Shown: piece after piece, positions 10,928 to 27,018 of the stretch
How the letters are laid out: every line of letters starts with the position of its first letter
Numbering within the stretch: the first letter of the stretch is position 1
Virus record (IMG/VR): IMGVR_UViG_3300046010_010811
Coordinates: 1-31,539 of that record
DNA from: a virus
Taxonomy: Duplodnaviria > Caudoviricetes
Reading direction: 5' to 3' (one strand)
Length of the DNA stretch: 31,539 nucleotides
Program-made: the position numbers and the translations under genes
Notes under the pieces: generated by a model
Told to the model about the DNA's origin: nothing
Databases searched by the model: none
What the model saw: only the letters and a program-made list of their open reading frames with translations

Positions 10928-11931
10928 AAACATCCTGGAGTTCCATAGCCCGCGAGCAAGCGGACAAAGCGCACAAGACCGAAGTCGATGCGCTCAAAGC
11001 CAAGCTCGCGCAATACCAAGCCAGCGTCGAGTCGTTGGAGAAGCAACTCGGCATCGCGCTCTCGCTCGGCAAGACACGCATCCGTCCCCAGCCCCTCACC
11101 GTCTCGATGAACGACAAGGCCGAAGCTGTCGCCATCGCGCTTGCCAGCGATTGGCATGTTGAGGAAACCGTCGAGTCCGCCTCCGTCAACGGCCTCAACG
11201 AATACCGGCTCCCCATCGCCAAGACCCGCATCGAGAAATTTTTCTCCACCATCGCCCGCCTCACCGAGATCGAGCGCCACGGAGCCAAGATCGACGACCT
11301 CATCCTCTGGCTTGGCGGCGATTTGATGACCGGCATGATTCACGAAGAGCTTGCCGAATCGAATAGCAAGACGCCCACGCAAGTCATCCTCTGGCTCCAA
11401 GACCGCCTCGCAGACGGCCTCGCCACCCTCAAGCCGCACTTCAAACGCATCCTCATCCCGACCAGCTACGGCAACCACGGCCGCACCACCGTCAAACCGC
11501 GCCACGCCACCGGAGCCGCCCACAGCTACGAATGGCTCCTCTACCGCATCCTCGAAGGCCGCTTCCACGACGACCAGCAAATCGAATGGCAGATTGCGGA
11601 TTCCTACTTCAACTTCATGACGGTCTATGACCGCCGCCTGCGCTTCCACCACGGCGATGGACTCAAATTTCAAGGCGGCATCGGGGGCCTCACGATCCCT
11701 ACCGAAAAAGCAATAGCTTCATGGAATAAGTCGCCGAACCGAGCCGACCTTGATCTATTCGGCCACTGGCATCAATACCAGCAGAACCGGCACTGGCTCT
11801 GCAACGGGAGCCTCATCGGCTACAACGCCTACGCCCTCTCGATCAAAGCCAGCTTCGAGCCGCCCACGCAGACCTATTTTCTGCTCGATAAGAAACGCGG
11901 CCGCACCATGACCTCCCCCATCTACCTATGA
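10924..11931 (+). CDS. Calcineurin-like metallophosphoesterase
   Basis: All metal-binding motifs present: SDWH, GGD, GNHG, HHGD, GHWH; N-terminal coiled coil. Confidence 0.85.
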   Translation: MKTSWSSIAREQADKAHKTEVDALKAKLAQYQASVESLEKQLGIALSLGKTRIRPQPLTVSMNDKAEAVAIALASDWHVEETVESASVNGLNEYRLPIAKTRIEKFFSTIARLTEIERHGAKIDDLILWLGGDLMTGMIHEELAESNSKTPTQVILWLQDRLADGLATLKPHFKRILIPTSYGNHGRTTVKPRHATGAAHSYEWLLYRILEGRFHDDQQIEWQIADSYFNFMTVYDRRLRFHHGDGLKFQGGIGGLTIPTEKAIASWNKSPNRADLDLFGHWHQYQQNRHWLCNGSLIGYNAYALSIKASFEPPTQTYFLLDKKRGRTMTSPIYL

Positions 11932-12368
11932 CCTGGAAACACCTCGCCAAAAAGTCCAACTCCCTCCCGCCCGGCTGGAGCACCGCCGACGAAATCGCCG
12001 CCGACCTCGACTGCGAACCAAGCGAAGTCCCAAAAATCCTCGCCGCCTCGATCCGCGACGGCCTCGTCGAGAAACAAAACTTCCCCCACTGGCAACCCGG
12101 CAGCCGTCAACTCCTCTACCAGACCGGCTACCGGCAAAAGACCGGCAAGGTTATCTCGGAAAAAAGCCCACAAGTTTCTGACAAAACCCCAGACTCCATC
12201 CCCGGCATCCCCGACGATTTGCTGCCAAAAGTGCGAGACAAAATCCTCGCCAACCCGCACAAAACCGCCAGCGCGATCAAGGACCTGTTTTCCACAAACA
12301 ACCGCATGCGCCTAAGCGTAGCCGCCATCCGCAGCCTACTTGACAAGCCTCCGCAGAATAGAAGGTAG
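11928..12368 (+). CDS. Hypothetical protein, possible DNA-binding (HTH-like)
   Basis: 146 aa, ATGA-coupled; WSTADEIAADLDCEPSEV resembles a helix-turn-helix. Confidence 0.55.
   Translation: MTWKHLAKKSNSLPPGWSTADEIAADLDCEPSEVPKILAASIRDGLVEKQNFPHWQPGSRQLLYQTGYRQKTGKVISEKSPQVSDKTPDSIPGIPDDLLPKVRDKILANPHKTASAIKDLFSTNNRMRLSVAAIRSLLDKPPQNRR
12339..12363 (+). promoter_or_regulatory. CTTGACA-N8-CAGAATAGAA motif (putative late promoter/operator, copy 2)
   Basis: TTGACA 12340-12345 and CAGAAT 12354-12359, just upstream of ATG 12369. Confidence 0.4.
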
Positions 12369-14270
12369 ATGCCCGACGATCAGACCATAGTCGAAGGCGA
12401 TGCCGGATTCCTCGGCATGGCCTCCCGCCTCAACCCGCTGCAACTCCAGCCGGGCATGGTGCAGTATTGCGAAAACATGCGCCTCGACCGAGGCGTGGCG
12501 CAGACGCGCAAAGGCGCGAAGCGGCTGGGTGATGGCATATCGGCAGGCACGCAGCCTCTCACTCTTCCATTTGTGCTGGATGCCAATGCCCGCGTGCGCA
12601 CGATCTACTCGGGCGGCATCTTCGCCTCGGGCGTTTTCTCCTCGCCGAACTACGACGATGAAAATGAATACATCGTTCTCTGCGGGCCGACCTCGGCGTT
12701 TCTCTACCGGCAGGATGAGCCTATTGAGGAGATCAACTATCCCGCCACTGGGACAGCGGCCGACGAGATCATCGAGCCAACGGACAGCGTTTCGACGATC
12801 CAAGCGTTCAACCGCTTCTACCTCTTGCGCGAGGCTGACATGACGCTCCCAGCGTGGGATTGGAAATACACCACCGCCAGCGGCATCGCAGTCTCTGGCA
12901 CTACGGCCACCGTCCACATCACCGCCCATGGCCTCGCCGCCGGGCAGCGGGTGCGGATAGAGGAGGGGAGCCAAGCGGCATTCCAAGGGCATGAGTATGA
13001 CATCCTCACCGCTACGGCCAATGCCTTCACCATCGCCGTGCCCGCTGGCACATTGCCGGATGTCGCCGCCGACATCGCAATCCGCCGCGTCAAAGCCCCG
13101 CTGTGGTGGGATGGCTCGACGATGGACTTTCAACGCGCCGCCTCGGGCGTGCCTGCCGCAGGCGTGACCTTCAAGACCCTGCGCTCTGTGGGGTGGGCGG
13201 CTTACATCAATAACCGCCTGTGGATCCCCGATGGCCGCGACACCGTGGCCATCTCGGATGTTCTCGACCCCGACCTCTACGACCCTTTTTTCCAATCCTT
13301 CCGCGCCAACCAAGGCTCGAACGACTACCTGGTGGCGATTCACCCATGGGTGGAGGGGCAGGCCCTCGTCTTCATGCGGAACAGCATCTGGCTCGCCAAT
13401 CTCTCCGACACCAGCAACGCGACGGGCGACACCTTCACGGTGGACAGCGCCGTCTCCCGCCTAACTCTTCTCACCGACGAGATCGGCTGTGTCGCGCGGC
13501 GCTCGATCCAAACAGCTGGGCAATTTGTCTTTTTCCTCTCGGACGCCGGAGTTTACCGCCTCGACACCCAGCTCGACCTCAAGCTCCGAGCCAACACCCA
13601 GCCGCTCTCGGACCCCATCGCCGACCAGATCGACGAAATCAACAGCGACTACGCGCACCTCGCCGTAGGCCGTTGGTGGAACAACCGCTACTACCTCGCC
13701 GTGCCCATCGGCGAGAATGTCACAAGCAACAACACCCTTTTCTTGTGGAACGCGCTCAACTCGCAATGGGAAAGCCGCGACACCTACGCGATCAATCTCG
13801 ACGAGCTTCTGGTCGCCGCCTACTCCAGCCAACGCCGCCTCTTTGCAGCAAGCCGCGCCGGAACGCTCTTCCTGCTCGATGAGCTGGACTACGGCGACGA
13901 AGTGCCCTACGCCAACGCGCAAGAGCTCTACACCGAAATCCCCTCCGAACTCATTACCCGCCGCTACGGATGGGGGAGCCTCAATACCAAGCGCCTCACC
14001 CGAGCCAAAGCCAGCGTGCTCCTGCCAGACGCCTCCGCCTGCACGCTGGATGCCGTGACGACCGACTACGACGCGGACTTCCAAGTCGCCGCCCTGGAGA
14101 ACACCACCGGCGACGAGGAGGACTACACGCTCAAAGCCCCCCTGCGCTGCAAAGCCACCGGCCTCGACCTCCGTTTCCGCACGCAAAGCGGCCGACCCAT
14201 CCTCCGCCAGATCAGCGCCGAAGCCACCCGCTCCGCCCTCGACCCCACCGAAACCCGCACCCTCAACTAA
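12369..14270 (+). CDS. Tail nozzle / tail tubular protein B-like (DNA stabilization) protein
   Basis: 633 aa, beta-rich; GCVARRSI...VFFLSD.GVY and NRYYLAVP segments typical of podoviral nozzle beta-propellers; inserted AHGLAAGQRVRI module. Confidence 0.7.
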   Translation: MPDDQTIVEGDAGFLGMASRLNPLQLQPGMVQYCENMRLDRGVAQTRKGAKRLGDGISAGTQPLTLPFVLDANARVRTIYSGGIFASGVFSSPNYDDENEYIVLCGPTSAFLYRQDEPIEEINYPATGTAADEIIEPTDSVSTIQAFNRFYLLREADMTLPAWDWKYTTASGIAVSGTTATVHITAHGLAAGQRVRIEEGSQAAFQGHEYDILTATANAFTIAVPAGTLPDVAADIAIRRVKAPLWWDGSTMDFQRAASGVPAAGVTFKTLRSVGWAAYINNRLWIPDGRDTVAISDVLDPDLYDPFFQSFRANQGSNDYLVAIHPWVEGQALVFMRNSIWLANLSDTSNATGDTFTVDSAVSRLTLLTDEIGCVARRSIQTAGQFVFFLSDAGVYRLDTQLDLKLRANTQPLSDPIADQIDEINSDYAHLAVGRWWNNRYYLAVPIGENVTSNNTLFLWNALNSQWESRDTYAINLDELLVAAYSSQRRLFAASRAGTLFLLDELDYGDEVPYANAQELYTEIPSELITRRYGWGSLNTKRLTRAKASVLLPDASACTLDAVTTDYDADFQVAALENTTGDEEDYTLKAPLRCKATGLDLRFRTQSGRPILRQISAEATRSALDPTETRTLN

Positions 14271-14272
14271 CC

Positions 14273-15301
14273 ATGGCAACTCTCACTAAAGGCAAAACAT
14301 TCGTAAACGGCGAACTCGTCACCCCTGCCAACCTCCACCAGATGGTCGATGCCGCCACCGTCGCCAACATCGTCAACGCCGACATCGCCTCAAATGCCGC
14401 CATCGCCGACACGAAGCTCGCCACCATATCAACGGCCAACAAAGTCGCCCAATCTGCGGTTGCAAACCTCACGACCGACCTGGCTGGGAAAGCTGCTTCC
14501 TCGCACACGCACACGATTGCCAATGTGACCGGCCTGCAAACAGCGCTCGATGGTAAGCAAGCGTCTGGAAGCTATGCTCCTGCAACAGGCATCGCGCCAA
14601 GTGCCATCACTGGAACGGCCGTCATCACGACCGACTCCCGCCTCTCGGATGCGAGGACTCCGACCACGCATACGCACGACGACCGCTATTACACAGAGTC
14701 CGAGATGAATACTCTGTTGGCAGGCAAGCAAGCGTCTGGCTCTTATGCCGCTGCCACGCATACGCATTCCGCCGACGCCATTACCAGCGGGACTCTTGCA
14801 AACGCCCGCACCACCGCCACGAGCAGTAATTTACCCAATACTATTGTAGCTCGTAATAATTTTGGCGCCATACATATAGGTCTTATAACAGGTTTTTCGC
14901 CTGGGTCTAATAGTGGAATATACAATATAAATACATCGGAATTTGAATACATCGGCGGAATTTTAACCAACAGCACTAACACTGGCGTCATTTATAGCAC
15001 TGGCTCCGACCACCGGCTCAAAACCGACCTCGAAAAACTAACCGGCGCATTGGATCGTTTGTCGGCCTTGCCGGTCCACCGGTTCAAGTGGGTTGGCCAT
15101 CCTACCGCACCGAAAGTCGATGGCTTCCTAGCCCACGAAGCCCAAGCCGTTGTGCCCGAAGCCGTCACCGGCACCAAGGACGCCGTGGATGCAGACGGCA
15201 AACCCATCCATCAAGGCATCGACCAAAGCAAGCTCGTCCCGCTACTCGTCGCCGCCGTCCAAGAACTCGCCGCCCGCGTCGCTGCCCTCGAAGCCAAATG
15301 A
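14273..15301 (+). CDS. Tail fibre with C-terminal peptidase S74 intramolecular chaperone
   Basis: ATG 14273 (MATLTKGKTF); HTH-tripeptide fibre repeats; SDHRLK cleavage motif, GFLAHEAQ..VPEAV, IDQSKLVPLLVAAVQEL. Confidence 0.88.
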   Translation: MATLTKGKTFVNGELVTPANLHQMVDAATVANIVNADIASNAAIADTKLATISTANKVAQSAVANLTTDLAGKAASSHTHTIANVTGLQTALDGKQASGSYAPATGIAPSAITGTAVITTDSRLSDARTPTTHTHDDRYYTESEMNTLLAGKQASGSYAAATHTHSADAITSGTLANARTTATSSNLPNTIVARNNFGAIHIGLITGFSPGSNSGIYNINTSEFEYIGGILTNSTNTGVIYSTGSDHRLKTDLEKLTGALDRLSALPVHRFKWVGHPTAPKVDGFLAHEAQAVVPEAVTGTKDAVDADGKPIHQGIDQSKLVPLLVAAVQELAARVAALEAK

Positions 15302-15696
15302 CCCCCGCCCCCACCATGCTCCGCCCCGAGCCCTACCACGCGACCAAGCTCGCCGTGCGCCGCTCCCCGTTGCACCGGTGGGGAGTATTCGCCACCGCCC
15401 CCATCGCCAAGCACGAAGTGCTCGAGGAGGCCCCCTACGCCTGCGTGCCCAAGAAGCAACTCGCCAAAGCCCCGGCCTGTGAGACCTACAGCTACTATCT
15501 CGACGACGCCACCAGCATCATCGGCTTCGGCCTCGCTCCCCTCTACAACCACCACGACACCCCCAATGCCTGCCATGAGATCGACCAGGTAAACGAACTC
15601 ATGCGGCACTACGCCCTGCGCGACATCGCCGCAGGCGAAGAGATCACCCTCAACTACGGCGCAGAAAACGCCAAGCACTTCTTAGAAAAGGACTAA
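15298..15696 (+). CDS. SET-domain methyltransferase
   Basis: 132 aa from ATG 15298; SET motifs SPLHRWGVFA, YNHHDTPN and ALRDIAAGEEITLNYG. Confidence 0.88.
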   Translation: MTPAPTMLRPEPYHATKLAVRRSPLHRWGVFATAPIAKHEVLEEAPYACVPKKQLAKAPACETYSYYLDDATSIIGFGLAPLYNHHDTPNACHEIDQVNELMRHYALRDIAAGEEITLNYGAENAKHFLEKD

Positions 15697-15700
15697 TCCT

Positions 15701-18607
15701 ATGGCAATGAACATGAGCAACAGCGGCGGAGGAGGGGGAATGTCCGGCGGAGGTGGTGGCGGTGGCGCGATGAGCGCTCCCGCGATGAGCGCAGCCATGT
15801 CCGACAACAACATGGGCAACAACGCCATGTCCGGCAACAACGCCATGTCAACAGGGTCAACAGGGTCAGCAATGTCCAACGCCATGTCCGGCGGAGGAAT
15901 GTCCACCGGCGGCATGGGCATGGGCGGCATGAGCGCCCCGCCAGCCCCACAGCAGCGCAGCCTCTCCGAAGAAATGGCCGCCATCTCTGGCTATGCGCAA
16001 GCAAACGCCCAGGCGCAAGCCAACACCACCGTGGACACCGCAGGCCGCTTGAGCGACCAAGCCATCGAGAACACCGGCGACATTGCGCAACGCCTCCAAG
16101 ACAGCACCTACACCGCCGCCGCCAACCAAAACATCCGCGACGCCGGAACCTCAGCCGCCCAGCTCGGCCAGAGCTACAACCAAGTCGGCCAGACTGCCGA
16201 CCGCGTAGCCGCCTACAACGACCCCGCCCAAGCCCGGCTAAACCAGATGGCCCTCGGCCAGCTCTACCGGCCCGACCAACTTTCCTCCCAGAATGTCTCC
16301 GCCGATCAGGTGACCGGCTCTCGCGTAGCCAACATAGGCAACACGCAAACCGCCCAAGTCGGACCCGTGGCCGATGCTCAAGCAGCCCAAGCCCGAGCTG
16401 CTCGCATGGGCCAAGTGCAAAATGTCCAAGGTCCAGCAGGCTATGCTGCCGATCAGGTCCAGGCGCAACGCATCCTGTCCTCGCAGATGGGCCCAGTTGC
16501 CGATGTGCAAGCCGCCCAAGCTGGGCAAGTCAATGATGTCCGCGCCCAGCGTGTCCGCGCCGCCCAAGGCTACGCCTCGCAAATGGACGCCGTTGATAAT
16601 GTCCAAGCCGCTACCACCGGCGCAATCGAGCGTGTCGGTGGAACACAAGTCGGAGCGGTGGACCCCATGGAAGCCGCCCGCGTCCGCCGAGTGCAAGACA
16701 TCCAAGCGCAGAATGTCCGCGCCAGTGCCGCCGAGCGTGGCCTCATGAATGAAGCCCGTGGCAATGGGCTCCTCGGCCAACTCGAAGGCCAGGCCAGCAA
16801 CGACCTCGCCCTCGGACGCTCCCTCTCAGCCGAGCAAAGCCGCGACGCCATCCAATCTTCCCGTGCCGCATCATCCGCCCGTGGCCTCGGCCTCGGCCAA
16901 TCCGCCATGGCCGCCGAGCTTCTCAACCGCGACCGTTTCGCCACCGCCAGGGAAAACGAACGCCGCACCTTTGCAGGCAATGTCCTCGGCCAAGGCATGG
17001 CTCTCCGCACCTCGGCCAACCAAGCCTACGCCCAGCGGCAGGACGCCAACGCAGGGCGCTCCCTCCAAGCCGACAGCACAAACCAATCTGTGGCTCAAGC
17101 CCGCGCCATGCAAAATGCGCAGTTTGCCCAGCAGGCAAATCTCACCGACAACCAAAACGCCCAGCAGCGCGTCCTCGCCAACGCCGGTTACGCCCAGCAA
17201 GCCGGATTGAGCAACCAAGATTTCAGTTTCCGCGCCAACTCCCAAGACGCTCAATTTTCTCAGCAAGCCAACCTTGCCAACCAACAGGCCGCCCTTCAAC
17301 AAGGCCAATACAACGCCAGCAACCAGCAGGCCATGGCATTGGCCAACCTGCAAAACCGCCAGCAGGCAAGCCTCTCAAACCAAGACGCCTTCCTGCGTGC
17401 AGGACTCGCCAATCAATCCTCGGGCCTCCAACTCGGCCTCACCAACGCCCAGCTTCAGCAGCAAGCAGCCTTGGCTAACCAGCAGACCGCTTACAACACC
17501 GGCCAAGCCAACGCCCAGCTTGCCCAGCAAGCCGCCCTTGCCAACCAAAGCACAGGGCTCCAAGCCTCTCAACTCAACCAAGCCGCCAACGCCCGCGCCG
17601 CAGAGTTTCAGCAACAAGGCGGCCTTCAAGCCGCCCTCGCCAATCAGCAAGTTGGATTTCAAACGAACCAATTCAACGCAGCCAACCGCCAAGCCGCCAA
17701 CCTCGCCAACGCAGGCTACGCTCAACAGGCAGGTCTCGCCAACCAAGCCACCGCCCTCCAGCTCGGCCAGACCAACGCCCAGCTCCGGCAACAAGGCTAC
17801 CTCACTGATAATTCCAACGCGCAGCAGGCCGCCATGGCCGATGCAGGCTACGCCCAGCAGGCCAACCTCGCCAACCAATCGGCCAACCTCAACGCCGCCC
17901 AATACAACTCCTCGCAAAACCTCGCCGCGCAGCAGGCGAACCAATCGGCCAACTACAACGCTAACTACGCCAATCAAAATTTTCTGCAAGGAGTCGCCAG
18001 CCAGAACTTCAACCAATTTTCGGGCCAGCAAAGCATGCTCGGCAGCCTCTACGGCCAGCAAGCAGGCATCGCTCAAAACCAATACGCCAACAATCTCGGC
18101 CTCGCCCAAGCCAATGTCGCCCTCGACCCCTACCAACGCGCCCTCGGATCCAACATCCCCATAGCCAGCCAAGGCAACGCCGCCTCGATGATCGGCCAGA
18201 GCTACGGCAACACCATGACCTACGGTTCCGACCTCTACAACACCAACACGAACATGCAGGCCAGCTTGTATAACAGCTACTACAACAACAGGACCGCCCT
18301 TAAATCTGCTAATATCCAAGCCGATGCCTCACGCGACGCCGCAGGCATGGGCCTCCATGGAGCAGCCATGGGAGCCAGCGCCGTCATCGGAGCCGCCGCT
18401 GCCGCCTGCTGGGTAGCCCGCGCCGCCTTCGGCACGGCCACTACTCGTTGGGTGGAATACCGCCGCGCCATGCTCCGCCATGCCAGCGACCGCACGATCC
18501 GCCTCTACTGCCAGCACGGCCAATCCATCGCCGCCGCCATCACCACGCCACTTCGCCGCCTCATTGCCCGCCTCACGCTCCGCACCCTTCAATGGTCTTG
18601 GAACTAA
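15701..18607 (+). CDS. 968-aa Gln/Asn/Ala-rich probable DNA-ejection (pilot) protein
   Basis: Met-Ser/Gly N-terminus, long 11-residue Q/N/A repeats, Gly/Ala hydrophobic segment, C-terminal CWVARAAFG domain; lies between the fibre and internal virion genes. Function inferred. Confidence 0.6.
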   Translation: MAMNMSNSGGGGGMSGGGGGGGAMSAPAMSAAMSDNNMGNNAMSGNNAMSTGSTGSAMSNAMSGGGMSTGGMGMGGMSAPPAPQQRSLSEEMAAISGYAQANAQAQANTTVDTAGRLSDQAIENTGDIAQRLQDSTYTAAANQNIRDAGTSAAQLGQSYNQVGQTADRVAAYNDPAQARLNQMALGQLYRPDQLSSQNVSADQVTGSRVANIGNTQTAQVGPVADAQAAQARAARMGQVQNVQGPAGYAADQVQAQRILSSQMGPVADVQAAQAGQVNDVRAQRVRAAQGYASQMDAVDNVQAATTGAIERVGGTQVGAVDPMEAARVRRVQDIQAQNVRASAAERGLMNEARGNGLLGQLEGQASNDLALGRSLSAEQSRDAIQSSRAASSARGLGLGQSAMAAELLNRDRFATARENERRTFAGNVLGQGMALRTSANQAYAQRQDANAGRSLQADSTNQSVAQARAMQNAQFAQQANLTDNQNAQQRVLANAGYAQQAGLSNQDFSFRANSQDAQFSQQANLANQQAALQQGQYNASNQQAMALANLQNRQQASLSNQDAFLRAGLANQSSGLQLGLTNAQLQQQAALANQQTAYNTGQANAQLAQQAALANQSTGLQASQLNQAANARAAEFQQQGGLQAALANQQVGFQTNQFNAANRQAANLANAGYAQQAGLANQATALQLGQTNAQLRQQGYLTDNSNAQQAAMADAGYAQQANLANQSANLNAAQYNSSQNLAAQQANQSANYNANYANQNFLQGVASQNFNQFSGQQSMLGSLYGQQAGIAQNQYANNLGLAQANVALDPYQRALGSNIPIASQGNAASMIGQSYGNTMTYGSDLYNTNTNMQASLYNSYYNNRTALKSANIQADASRDAAGMGLHGAAMGASAVIGAAAAACWVARAAFGTATTRWVEYRRAMLRHASDRTIRLYCQHGQSIAAAITTPLRRLIARLTLRTLQWSWN

Positions 18608-19767
18608 CAGAAAAAATCCGACTCGAAGGAGCCCACCGCGCCTGCACTCCAGAGCAAACGCTGGAGCGCATGCGGCCGCATTTCCACGCCGCAGGCATTA
18701 CCCGCCTCGCCGAGATCACCGGGCTCGACCGCATCGGTATTTGTGTTGCCCAGTGCATCCGGCCAGATGCCATAGTGCTGGCCGTGGATTCTGGCAAAGG
18801 AGCCACCCCCGCCGCAGCAAAATGCTCGGCCATGATGGAAGGCTTTGAGCGCCATGTCGGCGAGACCAGCCGCCCTCGGCACATCCTCGCCACCGCAGCG
18901 CAGCTCGGCGACAAAGCCGAGACACGCCTGCCGCTTTCCAAAGGAGCTGTCTTTCACCCCCACGCCCTCATGCCATGGACCGAGGTGCGCGGCCTACAAA
19001 GTGGATCCGCCCGCATGGTGCCTACCGACACCGTGCGCCTCATCGCCCGTCCAGACCCCGCCCCGCTTACCAGCCTGCCATTTGCCTACACCAGCAACGG
19101 TCTCTCTTCCGGCAACACCTACGCCGAAGCCGTCGCCGGTGGCCTCTACGAGTGCATCGAACGAGACGCCACAGCCATCGCCCAGCACAGGCTGCAAGAT
19201 TTCCCCCGTGTCGATCTCGATACCATCACCGACCCCACCGTAGCCCGCCTCGTCCGCACACTGCGCGACGCCGACATCACCCCTGTGCTCCTTGATGTCA
19301 CCAGCGACATCGGCCTGCCCACCTACATAGCATATCTCATCGACTGCGAGAGCGGCTGCGGAGTCAATAAAGGCTACGCCGCCCACCTCGATCCAGCCGT
19401 GGCCCAAGCCCGCGCTCTCACCGAGACCATCCAAGCCCGCGCCGTATGGATCGCTGGAAGCCGCGACGACTTCCTCCACGCCCGCTACGAGAAGGTCAAA
19501 GCCACCGACTCCTCCGCCATCCTCGCCCGCCTCTACAAGCACGCCACCACCAGCGCAAACGCCCATCCCGACCGATCCGGCGACACCTTTGAGGCAGACA
19601 TAGACACCCTCCTTGATCTCCTCGATGCTGCCGGTATCCCCGAGCCACTCGTCTATGAGTTCACCCACGACTACCCATGCAGCGTCGTGCGAATCATAAC
19701 CCCTACGCTGGAAGGCTACACCTTCGACTACTCGCAACCAGGCCACCGCGCCAGGAGGGTCAAATGA
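18592..19767 (+). CDS. ycaO: YcaO-family protein (TfuA-associated, thioamide-forming type)
   Basis: 391 aa from ATG 18592; GITRLAEITGLDRIG, SGKG...SAMMEGFER, SNGLSSGN....A...LYECIERD, RALTETIQAR..WIAGSRDD, VVRIITP.LE. Confidence 0.93.
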   Translation: MVLELTEKIRLEGAHRACTPEQTLERMRPHFHAAGITRLAEITGLDRIGICVAQCIRPDAIVLAVDSGKGATPAAAKCSAMMEGFERHVGETSRPRHILATAAQLGDKAETRLPLSKGAVFHPHALMPWTEVRGLQSGSARMVPTDTVRLIARPDPAPLTSLPFAYTSNGLSSGNTYAEAVAGGLYECIERDATAIAQHRLQDFPRVDLDTITDPTVARLVRTLRDADITPVLLDVTSDIGLPTYIAYLIDCESGCGVNKGYAAHLDPAVAQARALTETIQARAVWIAGSRDDFLHARYEKVKATDSSAILARLYKHATTSANAHPDRSGDTFEADIDTLLDLLDAAGIPEPLVYEFTHDYPCSVVRIITPTLEGYTFDYSQPGHRARRVK

Positions 19768-20780
19768 AAATCTTCCTCGGCCCCACACGCCCCGCAAATA
19801 TCCCCGCCGATGCCGACCTCCGCCCCCCGGCCCAGCAAGGCGACATCGCCGCCGCCGCTCTTGAAGGTCCAGATACCATCCTCCTCATCGACGGCCTCTT
19901 TCACCAAAGCCTCGCCCCCTGGCACAAGGAAATCCTCTTCGCCATCGAGCAGGGATGCCGCGTCATCGGCGCAGGCAGCCTCGGCGCACTCCGCGCCGTC
20001 GAGTGCGCCCGCTACGGAGCCGAGCCAGTCGGCATCATCGCCGGGTGGTATGCCGACGAATCCTGCACCGACGATGCGGATGTAGCCCTCGCTCACGGCC
20101 ATGCCGAAGACGGCTACCGCGCCCTCTCCATTCCAATCGTCAACCTCCGCGCCACCGCCGAGTGCCTCGTCGCCGACGGCCTCCTGCCCGCAGCCGATCT
20201 CGCAGGCATCCTCACCACAGCCCGCAGCATCTACTATGTCGAGCGCAGTTGGCCCCGCCTACGCCAAGCCCTCGGCCCCGTGGCAGACCTCCTCCGCGAG
20301 AACTACCGCGACCAGAAAGCCCTCGACGCCGAGGAAGCCATCCGCCACGCCCAGCATGTCGCCGCACCCCTCCAGTGCGACACGCCCCAGCACACGCACA
20401 GCGCCTATTTCCTCGCCCTCCTCGCCAACGACCTGCCAATCAGCGACGGCCAACGCCAGCACCATCTCACCAGCGAAGCCGACCGCACCCTCGCCACCGA
20501 CCTCCACCTCGTCTCCGAGTTGGCGCAACTCCTCGGCATCGTCACCACGCCCGAAGACATCTTCGCCGCCAGCACCCGCATGTGGCATCGCCTCGGCATC
20601 ACCGACCCCACCGCCGCGCAAGCCTGGCTCTCCGAGCACGCCTGGACCGACCAGCAATGGTATGCCCACGCCCAGCGGGAAGCACTCCGCCAAGCCGCCC
20701 GCGATTGGCACAACGCCAGCGGTGCCTGCCTCGACATCGTTCCACTCACCCTCGCCCACAACCTACTCAACCCAGCCTAA
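19764..20780 (+). CDS. tfuA: TfuA-like protein with C-terminal helical extension
   Basis: 338 aa, ATGA-coupled to ycaO; IFLGPT, PPAQQGDI, LIDGLF....PWHKEIL, GAGSLGALRAVE, DDADVAL, S.PIVNLRAT, DQKALDA. Confidence 0.93.
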   Translation: MKIFLGPTRPANIPADADLRPPAQQGDIAAAALEGPDTILLIDGLFHQSLAPWHKEILFAIEQGCRVIGAGSLGALRAVECARYGAEPVGIIAGWYADESCTDDADVALAHGHAEDGYRALSIPIVNLRATAECLVADGLLPAADLAGILTTARSIYYVERSWPRLRQALGPVADLLRENYRDQKALDAEEAIRHAQHVAAPLQCDTPQHTHSAYFLALLANDLPISDGQRQHHLTSEADRTLATDLHLVSELAQLLGIVTTPEDIFAASTRMWHRLGITDPTAAQAWLSEHAWTDQQWYAHAQREALRQAARDWHNASGACLDIVPLTLAHNLLNPA

Positions 20781-20785
20781 TACCC

Positions 20786-21394
20786 ATGCCATACAACCCC
20801 TCCGTAAACGACAACTCAGGCCAGATATTGGGCCAAGCCACAGCAAACGCCGCTGCTATACAAGCGCAAGGCACAGCTCAATTTTCACAAAATTTAACAG
20901 ACTCGTTCAACACCGTCATGGGCATGGTGAATAAACGCGTCGAGAAGAACCAGGCCGATAACTCCAAGATGCAGCAATCCATGGCAAGCGGCCAAGCCAT
21001 GATGAGCCTCTCCGACAACTACGGAGAGCAAGGCGAGAAATTCAAAACCTCTCTGGCTAAAGCTCTCGAAGAAACCAAAGGCAACCCCGACAAAATGTCC
21101 GGCGCAGTCATGGCCCACACCGCTGAGTTTGAAAACATGCAGAAACAGCAGTTGGCAAGAGAGCAATACACTGCCCTCGGCAACGCCTACGCAGGCAAGG
21201 CCGCTGCGACCGCCGCTGCTAAAGCAGCGCAGCCCGACAAGATGAACGCCGAGACGATCCGCTCCTATGCACGGGACGCGGCTGCCCAAGGTGCGACGCA
21301 AGATCAGATCAAGGCCGGGCTTTTGAATGGTTTTGGTCAATGGGCCGTCGATGCTGTGTTTCCACAAGCTAAACAAGGATTTTGGGGGCCTTAG
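20786..21394 (+). CDS. Probable internal virion protein (202 aa)
   Basis: ATG 20786 (MPYNPSVNDNSGQILGQ); helical, Ala/Gln-rich; precedes the giant internal protein. Confidence 0.55.
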   Translation: MPYNPSVNDNSGQILGQATANAAAIQAQGTAQFSQNLTDSFNTVMGMVNKRVEKNQADNSKMQQSMASGQAMMSLSDNYGEQGEKFKTSLAKALEETKGNPDKMSGAVMAHTAEFENMQKQQLAREQYTALGNAYAGKAAATAAAKAAQPDKMNAETIRSYARDAAAQGATQDQIKAGLLNGFGQWAVDAVFPQAKQGFWGP

Positions 21395-21408
21395 TATAAT
21401 AGCATTCC

Positions 21409-24400
21409 ATGGCTCTAAACCCCCTTCTGGACATCATCCGTTCCTCTGGCTCGTCGGCTCGCGCCGGTGCGCTGGCTATCGACCAAGACACCGCGCTGCC
21501 CGAGCAGGTCGAGGTGCCGTATCCGCAATCCGATCTGGTCGGTGCGTTGGATAGCATGGACCTCACGGAAGACGCGCCGCAAGATGTTGCCGCCAATGAA
21601 GCGCCTGCCGAGCCAGCGCCGCTACCGAAGGGGAATCCCCTCATGGACATCATCAGGGGCAACGCGCCCGCTGCGCCGACATTACCGAAGGGCAATCCCC
21701 TCCTCGATGTGATCCAGGCAAACGAAGCCGCCACCCAGCAAGCCGTCGCCGAGGCCACCACCCCAGCCGAGAATCTCCCCGTCCTCAAGTCCGACCTCGC
21801 CAATGCCCTCGGCGTCCTCGATTACCGCGACCCCGAGGAAGGCCAGCGCCGCCAGCAAGCCACTGCCATGGGCGAAATCCTCGGCCTTCCGGAATACGAG
21901 AAGGTCCAACTCGGAGCCGCCCCGGTGAACGCCGACGGCACCGTCACCATCCGCCGCGCCCAGGCCGTCAGCCCCCAGGCCAATGCCGCCGCTGCCAAGC
22001 AGCTTGCAAATATGCAGACGATGGCCGCTGGCGAAATGCTCGTCGAAGAATCTCCCAAAGAAGTCGGCTCCCTCCAAGGCATAGCCAACGCCGCGCAGAA
22101 TGCTTTCGACTCCGCCCGCCAAGCCCTCATGGCCACCGATGGTCTCGATGAGAACGACGCCTCGCAGATCGCCCGCATCGAATACAATAAAGCCGCCCGC
22201 CGTGTGGCCCCAGGCTACGCCGCCTACCAGCAAGCCGAAGGCTGGGATGCCGCCAAAGCCTTTGCCAAAAATCCATTTGAGGTTACGGCAAATATCATCA
22301 CCGAGGGTCTTGCTGGAAGCTGGCCTGCGCTCGCAAGCGGCCTTGCCACAGGTGCCACTACTGCGCTTGCGACCGGTGCCGCTGGATCGGTTGTGCCAGG
22401 CGTGGGTAATGTCATCGGCGCAGGCGGTGGCTTCACCGCAGGCATGGTCGGAGGCACAGCCGCCGGTTCCTTTGCCACAGAATACGGCAGCAAAATCCTC
22501 GAAGAGTTGCAGACCGCCGGGATGAATCCCAAAAACCCCGAGAGCATCGCCAAATTTTTCAGCAACGAAACGCTCATGGCTGAGGCAAAGGATGCCGCCC
22601 TCAAGCGAGGCGTTCCCGTTGCCGCCTTCGACGCCCTCTCCGCAGGCATCGCCGGGCGAGTCGGCTCAGTCTTCCGCGCCGCCGCCAAGACCCCTGTCCG
22701 CCTGGCCGTCACAGAAGGAGTCATCCAAGGAGGGCTTGGAGGAGCAGGCGAGGTAGCCGGATCCGTCGCAGCCGGAGACCCAGTAAACCCCAAGGCCGTC
22801 TTCGGAGAAGTCATCGGCGAAGTCGGACCCGCCGCCATCGAGATAGCCGCCGGACGCCAAGCCGCAGCCCCCGCCGAAGTCCCGCAAAACTTCACCCCCA
22901 TTTCCTCCCCGGCACCATCCGCCCCCACCGGCCAACCCCCGCGCACCCTCGGCCAAGTCCGCGCCCCCGAAATCCCCATCGACCAAACCGCCCTCGATGA
23001 AGCCTTCGGCTCGACCTTCGCCCCGCCGCCCGAGGTATCAAATGATACCTTCGCCCCGCCTGCCGCAGTTAACCCACAGGTTAACCCGCCCGATGCTGCA
23101 CCAGCAGAAGCTCCCGCGCCAGAGGTTGCGCCTGCTCAAGTTACTTTGTGGCGTGCAGAAAGAAGGGTCGGCGACATTAAAGAAGGTAAATCGCTTGGAA
23201 CATTCCTAACATCTTCTGAAGATACAGCATATAGCCTTGCAGATATGCAGGGAGAAGTTGAGCAAGTTGATGTTCAAATAGCAAAACCACTTATAATTCC
23301 ATCTGGAGAAAACAACAATGAATTATACTTTGATTCACAGCAAGTAAATGGAATCCTTAAAAATGCTGGTGTAAAATATAGGGTAGACCCCAGATACGGC
23401 TATGATGAATTCTGGAGGATTCTTGATTCAGAAGGACCGAAAATGGTAAACGCCATCAAAAAGGCCGGATATGATTCAATTCAATATCCAGAATTTTTAG
23501 GCAGACAAAATCAAACAACGACACTTCTTCTTCAGCATGAAAGAGAAGGACAACAATTCAAATCTAAACTTGCCGCCCCTATTCCCCCGAACACCTCTAC
23601 GGCCCCAGCCGCCGCAAGTGGAGCGCCTGAACCAACAGGATCACCCGACCTGATCACCGGGGAGGGGGCATCTGTTTCTCCGACAGCGGTTCTTCCATCT
23701 CCTGAGACTACCCCCGCCGCCACCGCCCCCCGCCCGTTTTCCGAAATCATGGCAGAGAACATGAAGCGCAAAGGCGAGGCAGGCTATATCGACTTCGGCG
23801 TGGTGCAGGATTTCGGCCAGAGCATCTACCAAGCGGGCATGGATTTCGCCGCATGGTCTGGGCGCATGGTGCAGAAGTTTGGTGAAACCATCCGCGATGT
23901 GCTCTCTTCTCTCTGGCAAGCCGTCTCCGGCGGGCAATACCTGCCGCAAGCCCGCGAGCGTGGCAGCGTAAACATTTCTCCTGGCACTGGACCCAAGCCC
24001 CGCAAGTTCGGCCAATCCCTCCAAGCCGCCCCCGGCGTTGCGCCCGAAGTCAAATCCCGCCTCACCTCGCTGGATTACGATCCCGTCTCGAACGCCCAAA
24101 CCCTCGCCAACGCCCGCGCCCGCATCGACTCCGCAGGCAGCATCGACACCGCATTCACCGACCTCATGGGCAAGCCCGCCATCGAAGGCTGGCAGCCCAC
24201 CGCCGAGGATTACGCCACCGGCATGGAACTTATGGCGCAACTCCAAAACCGAAGCCGCCATGCCGATGCCGCCTCCATCGCCAACATGATGGCCACTCGC
24301 GCCACCGACCAAGGCCGCGCCATCCAAGCCCTCTCGATGATTGGCCGCCTCGGGCCGCAAGGCATCGAGCTATTCGCTCAAAGCCAACTTCAAGCCGCCG

Positions 24401-26973
24401 CCACCAAGCCCGCCAAAACCGACAAGCAGAAGGCCGATATCCAAGCCAAGATCACCGAGGCCGGTCAGTTGCAAGGCGAGGTGGACAAACTCCGCCGCGA
24501 CTCCACTACCGCAGCCATCGTCGGCAATAAAGACCTCATCAAATCCTCGCTCCCCGCCGGAGTCGATGCCGTGCAGGTCAACATCGCCATCCGCGAAGCC
24601 ATCCTCGGCGCACCCACGCCGCTGGCCGCCCAAGCCGCCACCTCATCCATCCTCACCGGCCAAGGTCTTTCAGACAAAGGAGCCGCCCGCATCGCAGGCA
24701 GCATCGTCCGCGACTTCCTCAAGACCACGCAGGACACCCGCGCCACCGTCCTCCAAGACCTCCTCGCTACCGCCGATTCCGACCGCCGCCTGGATAAATC
24801 CAAGCTCGGCTCCCTCATTCGCCTCAACCGCGAAGGCAAGCTCACCGATGCCAGCCTCCACGCAGGCATGGCCAAGATGCTTGGCATCCCGCACTGGAGC
24901 GCCGAGCACAGCGCCAAGGTCCGCCGCATCCTCGCCCAGCACGAGAAAGCCACCGACCCCCGCATCAAGCTCGTCAAGGCCGCCGAAGCCCTCGATGTCG
25001 TTTACCGCGACTTCATGCCGCCAGGCTTCCTCGATAAAGTGGACACCATCCAGACCATTGGCATGTTGCTGAACCCAAAAACGCCGATACGAAATGTCAT
25101 TGGCAACGCTCTCATGGCTGGGGCCGACCTCGCTGCCGATACCGTCTCCGTGCCTATGGATGCCTTGGTTTCCCTGGGCACCGGCGAGCGCACCCGCACC
25201 GGCCTTTCACTCGGTGAACGCATCATGGGTCTCGGAGCCGGAGTAGGCGACATCAAGGCAGGCTACGACTTCGCCCGCTCCGAAGGCCGTGGCCGCATGG
25301 GAAGCATCGCCGAGGGCGTCGATACGCTGGTCCGCCTCGGCCGCCTGCAATCCTCGGGCAAATACAACGCCTCCGACATCTCCGCCCTTAGCGGCCCCAC
25401 CTTCACCGCTCCCGTCCTTCGCCAACTGGAATCCACTCTTGGCCTCGTCCTCTCTATCTCAGACCGTGGCTTTTACGAATCTGCCTTTCGAGCCAGCCTC
25501 GACACCCGCATGAAAGCTGCCGCAGCAAATGGCACCCCTATGCTTGCCCCTGATCCAGATATGGTCACAGCCGCCCGCATGGATGCTGGCCGCGCTATTT
25601 ACCAAGACCCCAATCTTGCCAGCCGCACGCTCGGCAACCTGCGCCGAGTCCTCAATTTCAATCAACGATGGGGCATCGGCTCCCTGCTGATGAAATTTAC
25701 CCAAGTCCCCGGATCGATCCTCACCCGCGCCGTGGAATTTTCACCCTTTGGATTCATCAACACCGCCTACCAAAGCCTCGCGCCGATGCTCTCCAACTCC
25801 CGCGAGTTTGACCAAAAAGCCTTTACCGACTCCTTCTCCCGCGCCCTCGTCGGCACCACCGGCCTCGTCGCCACCGGCTACTGGCTCGCCCACCTCGGCA
25901 TCATCTCCGCTGGCGGCGACTCAAAAGACGAAGACAAACGCAACCTTAACCGCGCCACCGGCTGGGGGTCCTACAAACTCAACACCAGCGCCCTCAAACG
26001 AGCCCTCATGACCGGCAACTTCTGGACCCCTCAGAAACAGCAGCGCGACGACATGGTAATCGGCTACGATTGGGCGCAGCCTCTTTCCATTGGCGTCGCC
26101 ATGGGTGCCTACTCCCGCGAAAATCAAGAAGCCATCAAGCAAGACATCCTCGCAGGTAAGAAGCAAAGCCTCGCCGCCACCGGCCTCAACTGGCTCGCCT
26201 ACGCAGGCGGAGCCGCCACCGGAGCCATGAACTCCCTCGTCGAGCAACCCCTCCTCACCGGCCTTAATCAATTCGCCCGCGATGTCGGCTACGACAACAT
26301 CCCCGGCGCTCTCCTCAAAACCGCCGCCGACGCCCCCGGCACCTTCATCCCCACCGCCGCCCGGCAATGGATGCAACTCACCGACAACGCCGTCCGCGAA
26401 ACCCGCGACAGCTCCCCAGCTCGCCAATTCATCAACGAACTCAAGGCGCAACTCCCCGGCCAAAGCCAAACCCTCCCGCCGAAATACGACATCACCGGCC
26501 AACCCATCGAGCGTTGGGCCAAGGACAGCAACACGCTCTTCAATGTCCTCTTCAATCCCTCGATGGTCTCCTACATCAAAGGCAGCCCTGCGCTCACCGA
26601 GATGAGCAAGGTTTACAAATACACCGCCGAGGCCGGAGCCATCCCGAACCAGGTTAAACCGGAGTTCACCCTCGAAGGCGTCAAGGTCCGCCTCAGCTCC
26701 GAAGAGATCAGTGCCATGCAGAAAGACATGGGAGCCCTCAGCATCGCCGCGCTGGAGAAATTCGTCCTCTCCGATCCCCGCTACGACAAAGCCACATGGG
26801 ACATCAAAGCCAAAGCAATGACCCGCGCCTTGGAGAAAGCCGCCACCGCCGCCAAATACCGCATCCTCCTCGCCCGCCCCGACCTCAAGACCCGCGCCAA
26901 GCAAGAATACGAAGCTGCCATAGCCGCCGACGCCGCCACCCAAGCCGAAATGGTCGCAGCAGACGGGCCGTGA
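21409..26973 (+). CDS. Giant internal virion/ejection protein (large polyvalent protein-like) with ART-like insert
   Basis: 1854 aa; Gly/Ala-rich membrane-like segments, Pro-rich linkers, long helical C-half ending ...ELKAQLPG.SQTLPPKYDITGQPI; last gene of the virion operon. Confidence 0.7.
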   Translation: MALNPLLDIIRSSGSSARAGALAIDQDTALPEQVEVPYPQSDLVGALDSMDLTEDAPQDVAANEAPAEPAPLPKGNPLMDIIRGNAPAAPTLPKGNPLLDVIQANEAATQQAVAEATTPAENLPVLKSDLANALGVLDYRDPEEGQRRQQATAMGEILGLPEYEKVQLGAAPVNADGTVTIRRAQAVSPQANAAAAKQLANMQTMAAGEMLVEESPKEVGSLQGIANAAQNAFDSARQALMATDGLDENDASQIARIEYNKAARRVAPGYAAYQQAEGWDAAKAFAKNPFEVTANIITEGLAGSWPALASGLATGATTALATGAAGSVVPGVGNVIGAGGGFTAGMVGGTAAGSFATEYGSKILEELQTAGMNPKNPESIAKFFSNETLMAEAKDAALKRGVPVAAFDALSAGIAGRVGSVFRAAAKTPVRLAVTEGVIQGGLGGAGEVAGSVAAGDPVNPKAVFGEVIGEVGPAAIEIAAGRQAAAPAEVPQNFTPISSPAPSAPTGQPPRTLGQVRAPEIPIDQTALDEAFGSTFAPPPEVSNDTFAPPAAVNPQVNPPDAAPAEAPAPEVAPAQVTLWRAERRVGDIKEGKSLGTFLTSSEDTAYSLADMQGEVEQVDVQIAKPLIIPSGENNNELYFDSQQVNGILKNAGVKYRVDPRYGYDEFWRILDSEGPKMVNAIKKAGYDSIQYPEFLGRQNQTTTLLLQHEREGQQFKSKLAAPIPPNTSTAPAAASGAPEPTGSPDLITGEGASVSPTAVLPSPETTPAATAPRPFSEIMAENMKRKGEAGYIDFGVVQDFGQSIYQAGMDFAAWSGRMVQKFGETIRDVLSSLWQAVSGGQYLPQARERGSVNISPGTGPKPRKFGQSLQAAPGVAPEVKSRLTSLDYDPVSNAQTLANARARIDSAGSIDTAFTDLMGKPAIEGWQPTAEDYATGMELMAQLQNRSRHADAASIANMMATRATDQGRAIQALSMIGRLGPQGIELFAQSQLQAAATKPAKTDKQKADIQAKITEAGQLQGEVDKLRRDSTTAAIVGNKDLIKSSLPAGVDAVQVNIAIREAILGAPTPLAAQAATSSILTGQGLSDKGAARIAGSIVRDFLKTTQDTRATVLQDLLATADSDRRLDKSKLGSLIRLNREGKLTDASLHAGMAKMLGIPHWSAEHSAKVRRILAQHEKATDPRIKLVKAAEALDVVYRDFMPPGFLDKVDTIQTIGMLLNPKTPIRNVIGNALMAGADLAADTVSVPMDALVSLGTGERTRTGLSLGERIMGLGAGVGDIKAGYDFARSEGRGRMGSIAEGVDTLVRLGRLQSSGKYNASDISALSGPTFTAPVLRQLESTLGLVLSISDRGFYESAFRASLDTRMKAAAANGTPMLAPDPDMVTAARMDAGRAIYQDPNLASRTLGNLRRVLNFNQRWGIGSLLMKFTQVPGSILTRAVEFSPFGFINTAYQSLAPMLSNSREFDQKAFTDSFSRALVGTTGLVATGYWLAHLGIISAGGDSKDEDKRNLNRATGWGSYKLNTSALKRALMTGNFWTPQKQQRDDMVIGYDWAQPLSIGVAMGAYSRENQEAIKQDILAGKKQSLAATGLNWLAYAGGAATGAMNSLVEQPLLTGLNQFARDVGYDNIPGALLKTAADAPGTFIPTAARQWMQLTDNAVRETRDSSPARQFINELKAQLPGQSQTLPPKYDITGQPIERWAKDSNTLFNVLFNPSMVSYIKGSPALTEMSKVYKYTAEAGAIPNQVKPEFTLEGVKVRLSSEEISAMQKDMGALSIAALEKFVLSDPRYDKATWDIKAKAMTRALEKAATAAKYRILLARPDLKTRAKQEYEAAIAADAATQAEMVAADGP

Positions 26974-26984
26974 TTTTTGCACAC

Positions 26985-27016
26985 CCCCTCGGCCAGATTT
27001 TTCCAGCGCCGAGGGG
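26985..27016. terminator. Hairpin between convergent genes
   Basis: CCCCTCGGC (26985-26993) / GCCGAGGGG (27008-27016); no good U tract on either strand. Confidence 0.4.
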
Positions 27017-27018
27017 AA

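Follow-up and report, generated by a model that had tools for sequence, protein, structure and literature searches.

Introduction

Why would a phage encode a thioamide-forming enzyme pair, YcaO and TfuA, among the genes of its virion? The question is raised by IMG/VR virus record IMGVR_UViG_3300046010_010811 (Caudoviricetes), analysed here over its whole length of 31,539 nucleotides (the window), in which genes for a SET methyltransferase, a protein of 968 amino acids (aa), YcaO and TfuA follow one another. A preliminary description of this locus proposed that the phage thioamidates, and perhaps methylates, its own virion or ejection protein using host sulfur. The results of this work support self-thioamidation, since the enzyme residues are intact, the pair is linked to an ejection-type gene in 72 of 75 viral loci, no separate precursor is found, and the tail of the putative substrate is swapped together with the enzymes. 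YcaO and TfuA probably thioamidate residues 887-902 of the phage's own 968-aa predicted ejection protein. The features on which this reading builds are the following (E, expect value).

15298 to 15696, plus strand: minimal SET methyltransferase, 132 aa (PF00856, E 2e-13; vSET, 1n3j, E 3e-13)
15701 to 18607, plus strand: 968-aa protein rich in Ala, Gln, Asn and Gly, predicted first DNA-ejection protein and candidate substrate, from its position between the tail genes and the genes for proteins of 202 and 1854 aa
15701 to 15940, plus strand: its Met/Ser/Gly-rich N-terminal repeats, with 16 Met in 80 aa, candidate SET target from composition and co-occurrence with SET
18359 to 18406, plus strand: its Ala-rich uncharged tail, residues 887-902 (GAAMGASAVIGAAAAA), candidate thioamidation site from Ala enrichment only with YcaO and from likeness to bacterial cores
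18407 to 18607, plus strand: its C-terminal helical CWVAR domain, with weak likeness to CFI-box-CTERM, where YcaO is predicted to dock
18592 to 19767, plus strand: YcaO of the stand-alone, thioamide-forming type, 391 aa (PF02624, E 6e-66)
19764 to 20780, plus strand: TfuA, 338 aa, with a helical C-terminal extension of about 145 aa (PF07812, E 1e-33)
20786 to 21394, plus strand: 202-aa protein, predicted second ejection protein, which does not co-segregate with YcaO

The enzymes

The YcaO and TfuA motifs, which the preliminary description took to be intact, hold up under profile hidden Markov models and alignment, and both enzymes, like SET, match their families at the E-values listed above. 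YcaO reaches 223 bits against PF02624 (curated cut-off 25.7) and TfuA 116 bits against PF07812 (cut-off 30). The best solved match of YcaO is MJ1094 (6pe3), and its matches also include the cyclodehydratases TruD, LynD and MusD. When aligned with a list of residues which we take to be the ATP-binding ones of Escherichia coli YcaO, its K69, S79, E83, E86, S172, N175, E187, E190, R191, R274 and E278 fall on these positions; ten of the 11 ATP/Mg positions are invariant in all 14 aligned YcaOs, S172 is nearly invariant or Ala/Ser, and no degenerate ATP-binding position is seen. The change E202A of E. coli YcaO is reported in PMC13063428. The model of TfuA (predicted local distance difference test, pLDDT, 87) matches 6xp8 with E 6e-13 and a template modelling score of 0.77. 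Its S72 and K185, presumably the catalytic Ser/Lys pair, are invariant in all 19 aligned sequences. The C-terminal helical extension (window 20330-20777) is conserved in the aligned phage TfuAs, bacterial relatives are also long, and the extension itself has neither a Pfam match nor a clear known fold. The ratio of nonsynonymous to synonymous substitution rates is 0.03-0.27 for YcaO and 0.14-0.52 for TfuA (nine relatives each), and 0.06-0.33 for SET (seven relatives); all three genes are under purifying selection.

The type of YcaO can be narrowed down. Scores for the McrA equivalogs lie below their cut-offs (TIGR03266, 197.8 against 365; NF033432, 127.9 against 235.2), and the uL16-type model NF040716, of about 570 aa, gives 50.2 bits against a cut-off of 700, the phage YcaO having 391 aa and TfuA adjacent. 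Azoline-forming YcaOs of the TruD/LynD type have an E1/ThiF-like partner or fusion and a Pro-rich C-terminus; PF00899 (E1/ThiF-like) was found in none of the five records searched, and the C-terminus of the phage YcaO has no Pro-rich end. TfuA adjacency is given as a mark of thioamide-forming YcaOs in PMC5589413 and PMC8153245.

Linkage to the ejection gene

In the window, the order, the coordinates and all junctions of the preliminary description were found again on the sequence: SET, the 968-aa gene, YcaO and TfuA are consecutive, with ATGA overlaps at 15298 and 19764, a gap of 4 nucleotides (nt) before 15701, an overlap of 16 nt at 18592-18607 and a gap of 5 nt before 20786. Intergenic gaps from 11928 to 26973 do not exceed 14 nt and a Nif11 match is found in none of 30 window proteins, which agrees with the earlier statement that a short precursor is missing.

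Among 75 distinct viral YcaO loci collected in two scans, many of them near-copies, YcaO stands behind the first ejection-type protein in 72. In 71 a long open reading frame (ORF) ends at the YcaO start, and in L058 a small gene intervenes. The other three (L050-L052) carry YcaO-TfuA elsewhere, on the opposite strand and among non-structural genes (L050:9998-12120; G001). Linkage persists down to 31% YcaO identity and across differing tail-gene sets, so that the neighbourhood is conserved in the way the preliminary description had suggested looking for; the separate small precursor that would have spoken against it is absent between the genes. The protein upstream of YcaO ranges from about 270 to 980 aa and has a hydrophobic segment near its end, usually followed by a CW[VIL]AR domain. 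The gene intervening in L058 (9427-9966) is a 179-aa ORF, HNH endonuclease-like by eye, between the ejection gene and ycaO, and is absent in the close relative L142. A literature search, made over listings and abstract openings with few subscription papers, found no phage YcaO-TfuA system; at this abstract level, the earlier remark that none had been described stands.

The alanine-rich tail and its controls

In the last 16 residues of 41 unique YcaO-linked tails, those ahead of the CW domain, the mean number of Ala is 8.2, 40 of the 41 have at least six and none is charged; 114 unlinked tails average 3.0 Ala, with at least six in eight and charge in 60. The unlinked ones come from a wide family, CWVAREV[YF]G being present in about 870 viral stretches, with YcaO within 2 kb in none of 121 sampled (70 of which had at least 600 nt downstream). 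The CWVAR domain is, because of this, not specific to YcaO, and that idea was rejected. Of the sampled records with CWVAREV[YF]G, 118 were searched over their whole length, 18 of them at least 90% complete, and the sole YcaO carrier is G001 (one of these 18), in which YcaO-TfuA lies far from the ejection gene and the tail nevertheless has nine Ala of 16. In metagenome contigs, at least six Ala are found in 25 of 29 loci, two others being of the unlinked type and two without such an ORF; most of these loci duplicate earlier records, and two tails have one acidic residue.

A closer control is offered by sisters of the window phage that share the SET gene (53 loci, 37 with a complete ejection protein). 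In nine of the 37 the ejection gene is followed by YcaO (seven to nine Ala of 16), in 27 it is not (three to six) and one stands at a contig edge; at least seven Ala are thus present in all nine SET-linked proteins with YcaO and in none of the 27 without. Behind 18 of these 27 comes a PP-loop enzyme resembling 3'-phosphoadenosine-5'-phosphosulfate (PAPS) reductase, and behind nine no enzyme. The 18 proteins followed by the PP-loop enzyme end in an aliphatic Ile and lack the CW domain, and a CxxCxxCC gene comes next in the five translated; a scan for the PP-loop enzyme gave 38 loci, in all of which LAI forms the end of the upstream protein, and CxxCxxCC is present in 31, the other seven being incomplete. 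YcaO was present elsewhere in none of eight YcaO-less records at least 90% complete (six of the sister set, two close relatives). The protein of L434 is 92% identical to that of the window over residues 1-902, and its DNA departs from the window near 18290, where tail and enzyme switch together. Tail and enzymes are inherited as one swappable cassette.

In the sisters, YcaO-TfuA is replaced by the PAPS-reductase-like enzyme and an overlapping gene for a 97-aa CxxCxxCC protein (PF03692), as in L428:7730-8853, L432, L456 and L476-L513; the PP-loop enzyme has no tblastn match among GenBank phage records. In some YcaO-less sisters (L450:7398-7955, L454, L463 and L473) the ejection gene is followed by one more ORF, which is Gly/Ala-rich, has 185 aa and belongs to no known family.

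Predicted docking of the tail on YcaO

A complex of YcaO (with ATP/Mg) and the last 101 aa of the 968-aa protein was predicted with a score of 0.74, the best of three controls reaching 0.01; the mark used is passed by 116 of 157 solved and two of 215 mismatched pairs, a calibration that is only approximate here, with our own alignments and ligands supplied. The runs share at least 36% of contacts and partner pLDDT is at least 56. Confident contacts join the basic segment 921-938 (fragment residues 54-71) with YcaO 208-230, 252-253 and 308-319, regions that include the acidic D208, D210, D226, D228 and E253. Recall of a known complex is unlikely, because no solved fold clearly matches the partner. 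The mean net charge of the interface segment is +3.5 in 48 YcaO-linked domains, +1.1 in 106 domains of the general set and -1 in four from YcaO-less sisters. Docking would not be universal, since the CW segment of G001 is acidic (-2) and the domain is missing from L057 and L136-L138; the prediction holds for the clade of the window only.

The 968-aa protein

The putative substrate itself has no family match in profile searches, ejection families included. A protein of L286 that shares its C-terminal domain matches phrog_4287, 'DNA ejection protein', with E 7e-15, and a CWVAR-domain protein occupies the first ejection slot of the cultured Puniceispirillum phage HMO-2011 (L514:4102-6222, phage1322_25). 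In P22, ejection proteins are reported to build a conduit across the periplasm (PMC8402733). As the role is based on the L286 match, the HMO-2011 slot and comparison with P22, the 968-aa protein is only predicted to be a DNA-ejection protein. Its Ala-rich tail region is the most hydrophobic 19-residue window of the whole protein, and an Atlas search with it returned unnamed viral clusters only. The CWVAR domain is missing from some YcaO-positive relatives. It has no known fold (best Z 6.1, generic helices); eight of 18 members match the CFI-box-CTERM model NF041770 at E of 1 or less (best 1.2e-4), the window's own domain being unmatched. Cys903 is invariant in all 18 aligned domains.

Two variants of the domain's surroundings were seen in passing. 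In L315/L316:2001-3409 the CWVAREV[YF]G domain occurs three times at a spacing of about 690 nt, each copy after a Pro-rich linker and not a hydrophobic tail. In L293:67-1088, L297 and L299 the CWVAR ejection protein has an unusual N-terminus, and its gene comes after two enzyme-like ones that by eye resemble an oxygenase and a cupin, possibly another modification cassette.

Sulfur supply

Host sulfur, as the preliminary description had it, may apply to the window; ThiS and ThiF, missing from the window, were not found in the complete 42.2-kb record G154 either. Among the relatives, 13 of the 75 loci encode a carrier of their own, an 88-aa ThiS-family protein ending in Gly-Gly (PF02597, E 4e-8), between ycaO and tfuA. 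ThiF is found in none of the five records searched, so that charging of the carrier would fall to an enzyme of the host. Outside sulfide-rich habitats, thioamide-forming YcaOs are reported to tend to employ a ThiS carrier and TfuA as hydrolase (PMC13063428). In L036:5158-5376, L039 and L045, ycaO and thiS are separated by an ORF of 72 aa that belongs to no known family.

Bacterial relatives and origin

The closest cellular YcaOs are at most 45% identical, with TfuA in 78 of 79 loci. In several of these bacterial loci the precursors combine a Nif11-type leader and a double-Gly site with an Ala-rich end (e.g., AAGAAIGAAAAAI, SAVGASAAAAAAF, AATAAAMAAAV), the last one in the sister group of the phage clade (Shimodaira-Hasegawa-like approximate likelihood ratio test, SH-aLRT, 96); in some bacterial neighbours (L174, L202) the cores are different. 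A quick tree built from 85 YcaOs places 21 phage sequences, the window lineage among them, within bacterial clusters and sister to Acidimicrobiia loci (SH-aLRT 96), and sets L058, L142 and L144 apart from the main phage group. Two independent phage captures, which this tree suggests, were not established, a single origin giving p 0.315 in an approximately unbiased (AU) test of 28 rows. Azospirillum-type precursors by YcaO-TfuA (L158:5556-6368, L161:6951-7778, L154, L151) have Ala/Met/Ser repeats that resemble the N-terminal repeats of the 968-aa protein.

The bacterial clusters of YcaO, long TfuA and Nif11 precursors (Acidimicrobiia, Synergistaceae, Azospirillum; L145-L223) are thus alike in being the closest cellular sequences and in their Ala-rich cores. 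They differ in that a dedicated precursor and a transporter are both missing from the phage, whose core-like segment lies inside a structural protein of 270-980 aa; and whereas in bacteria the leader precedes the core, in the phage the CWVAR domain trails the core-like segment.

A possible mechanism

Taken together, the process would run as follows. By the known chemistry of these enzymes, YcaO would phosphorylate the backbone carbonyl at the expense of ATP, and sulfide would then displace the phosphate. The sulfide would be released by TfuA from a thiocarboxylated ThiS-type carrier, host-encoded here and phage-encoded in 13 relatives, and charged by a host ThiF-type enzyme. The basic CWVAR domain directly after the tail is predicted to dock on the acidic YcaO surface, much like the leader or follower in the precursor of a peptide made on the ribosome and modified after translation (RiPP). 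The enzymes may derive from bacterial RiPP clusters with Nif11 precursors, the hydrophobic tail of the ejection protein having replaced the peptide core. The purpose, for which the preliminary description put forward protease resistance, tube stability or defence evasion, is the least certain step: thioamides on a tail that inserts into the membrane might guard it against proteases of the host, or modulate its folding, while the DNA is injected. SET, as a second and independent module, would S-methylate N-terminal Met and so provide the positive charge that Lys gives SET-less relatives. Since thioamides are reported to protect peptides from proteolysis (PMC8153245), protease protection would suit a tail crossing the periplasm; for methyl-coenzyme M reductase, PMC5589413 reports that no global stabilisation was observed.

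Weighing the alternatives

Several results weigh against thioamidation of the tail. L050-L052 keep YcaO-TfuA away from the ejection gene, the complete YcaO-less record G037/L336 has an Ala-rich tail (eight Ala of 16), and a hidden YcaO, predicted from Ala-rich tails, was found in none of five unlinked loci chosen beforehand (four of them incomplete). The counts contain many near-copies, which overstates their independence, and the YcaO label switches only about four times on the tree of CW domains; as the tail adjoins ycaO, hitchhiking explains part of their co-segregation. The Ala segment has no confident placement in the predicted complex, whose calibration is approximate, and docking fails to extend to G001 and the four loci without the domain. 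The 968-aa protein has no direct match to an ejection protein, Ala-rich queries were among the seeds of the search for bacterial precursors, and the AU test does not reject a single origin of all phage YcaOs.

These results leave room for an unlikely alternative, in which another phage or host protein is thioamidated and the Ala tail merely hitchhikes on a recombination block. The unlinked pairs of L050-L052 and the physical adjacency of tail and ycaO would be expected from it, and cellular YcaOs are reported to act on whole proteins such as McrA and uL16 (PMC5589413, PMC13063428). Hitchhiking would not, however, explain why the tail of G001 is Ala-rich with its genes unlinked, or why the 202-aa protein, which is equally adjacent, does not co-segregate (its identity among YcaO-positive loci is 26-100% and homologues also stand behind YcaO-less cassettes); the predicted complex of YcaO and tail passes its controls, and similar Ala-rich cores occur in the bacterial relatives. 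Where the tail is accepted as the target, the chemistry could still differ: the activated Ala902-Cys903 amide might be attacked by a Cys thiol or an amine, with cleavage, a thiazoline or a cross-link as the outcome. The invariance of Cys903 and the cyclodehydratases TruD, LynD and MusD among the YcaO matches fit such a reaction. We nevertheless hold it very improbable, for TfuA lies next to YcaO, 13 loci have ThiS between the two genes, a ThiF/E1-type partner and a Pro-rich end are both missing as described above, the same Cys is present in the roughly 870 viral stretches without YcaO adjacent in any of the 121 sampled, and some YcaO-positive proteins have no Cys domain at all.

It is also conceivable, if quite improbable, that the tail is a RiPP core housed in a virion protein, thioamidated, excised and active as a peptide in the infected cell. 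Its pattern is nearly identical to the cores of bacterial precursors, the thioamides of thioamitides are reported to sit on Val/Met/Ala stretches and to protect from proteolysis (PMC8153245), and P22 gp7 is reported to be trimmed by a host protease (PMC8402733). But YcaO-less ejection proteins have a hydrophobic Gly/Ala tail as well, an indication that its role is structural, a conserved cleavage motif was not seen upstream of the segment, and Pfam gives no protease match within 15298-21394, in agreement with the preliminary description. Thioamidation of the tail as part of the ejection protein is the reading we retain.

Comparison with known systems

The archaeal YcaO-TfuA that forms thioglycine in McrA (MJ1094, 6pe3; TfuA, 6xp8; PMC5589413) shares with the phage pair a stand-alone YcaO next to TfuA, is described as acting on a whole protein and gives the best solved matches. 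The phage pair differs in falling below the equivalog cut-offs, in being viral, in the TfuA extension of about 145 aa and in its putative substrate, the adjacent virion protein. Thioamitide RiPPs (thiostreptamide S4, thioviridamide; PMC8153245) are likewise reported to combine YcaO-TfuA with several thioamides on a Val/Met/Ala stretch, whereas the phage cassette has no short precursor or macrocycle-forming enzymes; the core of small residues (Ala/Val/Met) found in thioamitide and Nif11 clusters is present in residues 887-902. E. coli YcaO, which acts on uL16 (PMC13063428), has the same ATP-binding residues and is reported to recognise a whole folded protein, but is reported to have 586 aa and no TfuA nearby. 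The phage system would work like a thioamide RiPP system without being a member of that class.

The late cassette of Bcep22-like phages has the same slots of enzyme, virion protein and enzyme, filled in JC1 by the acetyltransferase gp63, the virion protein gp64, detected in purified virions, and the PAPS reductase gp65 (PMC9144972). In PMC9144972 these genes are viewed as morons and not as modifiers of their neighbour; here the slots hold SET and YcaO-TfuA. Sisters of the window phage carry the PAPS-reductase-like gene in the slot matching gp65, with no tblastn match to cultured phages.

The SET module

That SET belongs to the YcaO-TfuA system, as the preliminary description implied, had to be rejected. 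Among the 75 YcaO loci it precedes the ejection gene in 12, which are precisely the ones where the N-terminus is Met-rich, and it is also found in many YcaO-less sisters; of the 53 SET loci 50 were readable, all 50 with a Met-rich neighbour, the distant L474 included. As it is tied to the Met-rich N-terminus and not to YcaO, SET is a separate module. Its partners are poor in Lys, with a single one (K868) in the 968-aa protein and none in 12 of 37 complete SET-linked proteins, and a conserved target Lys was not found in the SET-coupled protein. BurB is reported to be a case of SET-catalysed Met S-methylation (PMC12542666) and SETD3 to be able to methylate peptide Met (PMC8537074). Given such partners and these precedents, the activity of SET is likely, by analogy, to be S-methylation of Met in the N-terminal repeats. 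vSET (PBCV-1 A612L, 1n3j) is alike in its minimal SET domain and differs in targeting histone Lys; the likeness to BurB, a SET fold described as acting on free Met where the window's SET has a Met-rich and nearly Lys-free partner, is one of description and not of sequence comparison.

In most SET-less YcaO loci the protein begins with Met-Gly-Gly or similar and is Lys-rich, and the SET slot before it holds another small gene, of 115-160 aa (e.g., L047:8505-8882, L124:6561-7019, L135:6600-6986). For a GNAT acetyltransferase identity of this gene there is only a weak hint (E 0.04 to phrog_1249 in one of 11, no Pfam match).

Genomic setting

The window encodes an SU10-type capsid protein, tail genes, an S74 fibre and an integrase, the fibre gene (Pfam) lying upstream of SET.

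At 1052: SU10 major capsid protein (Pfam)

No plus-strand terminator-like site was detected across 11900-27400. Proteins matched in G154 (locus L001) are 100% identical to those of the window, so L001 is not independent of it. The lineage has integrase-bearing genomes of 40-42 kb, and the tyrosine integrase of the window (27019-28149, minus strand) converges on the late operon, which suggests a temperate phage. A genome scan found no prophage copy or host, the best cellular YcaO being 45% identical, and the contigs that bear the 63 closest protein clusters are no longer than 62.8 kb. Among 50,697 GenBank phage records, tblastn gave no match for YcaO, TfuA or the tail domain. The four best-matching DNA sequencing runs are lake-water metagenomes, one of them possibly the source of the window, and no matching RNA sequencing runs were listed. 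Further downstream, the 1854-aa protein is mosaic among relatives, with a short common segment near residues 720-770, and its gene contains a stretch of low GC (0.52; window 23001-24000).

Implications

In the literature covered, backbone thioamidation of whole proteins is confined to McrA and uL16, the remainder being small RiPPs. If our interpretation is correct, viral thioamidation of a structural protein would be a new role for a rare modification, and RiPP machinery would have gained another use through the transfer of a peptide core to a virion protein. The system is small, with a substrate of 130 aa and two or three small enzymes, and the tails of YcaO-less sisters are natural negative controls; a small set of enzymes for thioamidating Ala-rich segments joined to a docking domain of about 65 aa could be obtained from it.

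It is tempting to speculate further, and more tentatively, that the first ejection protein of podophages is a giant RiPP-like precursor served by two exchangeable modification cassettes: at the N-terminus SET (Met S-methylation) or another small enzyme, and at the tail either YcaO-(ThiS)-TfuA, with a polythioamidated Ala core and CWVAR docking, or the PP-loop ATPase with the CxxCxxCC protein, activating the terminal Ile. Both tail cassettes may then add sulfur to one and the same membrane-inserting tail, as armour against host proteases or defences while injection takes place. Such a view is possible, if doubtful. The swappable cassettes do suggest that slot genes classed as auxiliary metabolic ('PAPS reductase', 'S12 methylthiotransferase accessory factor') modify virion proteins instead.

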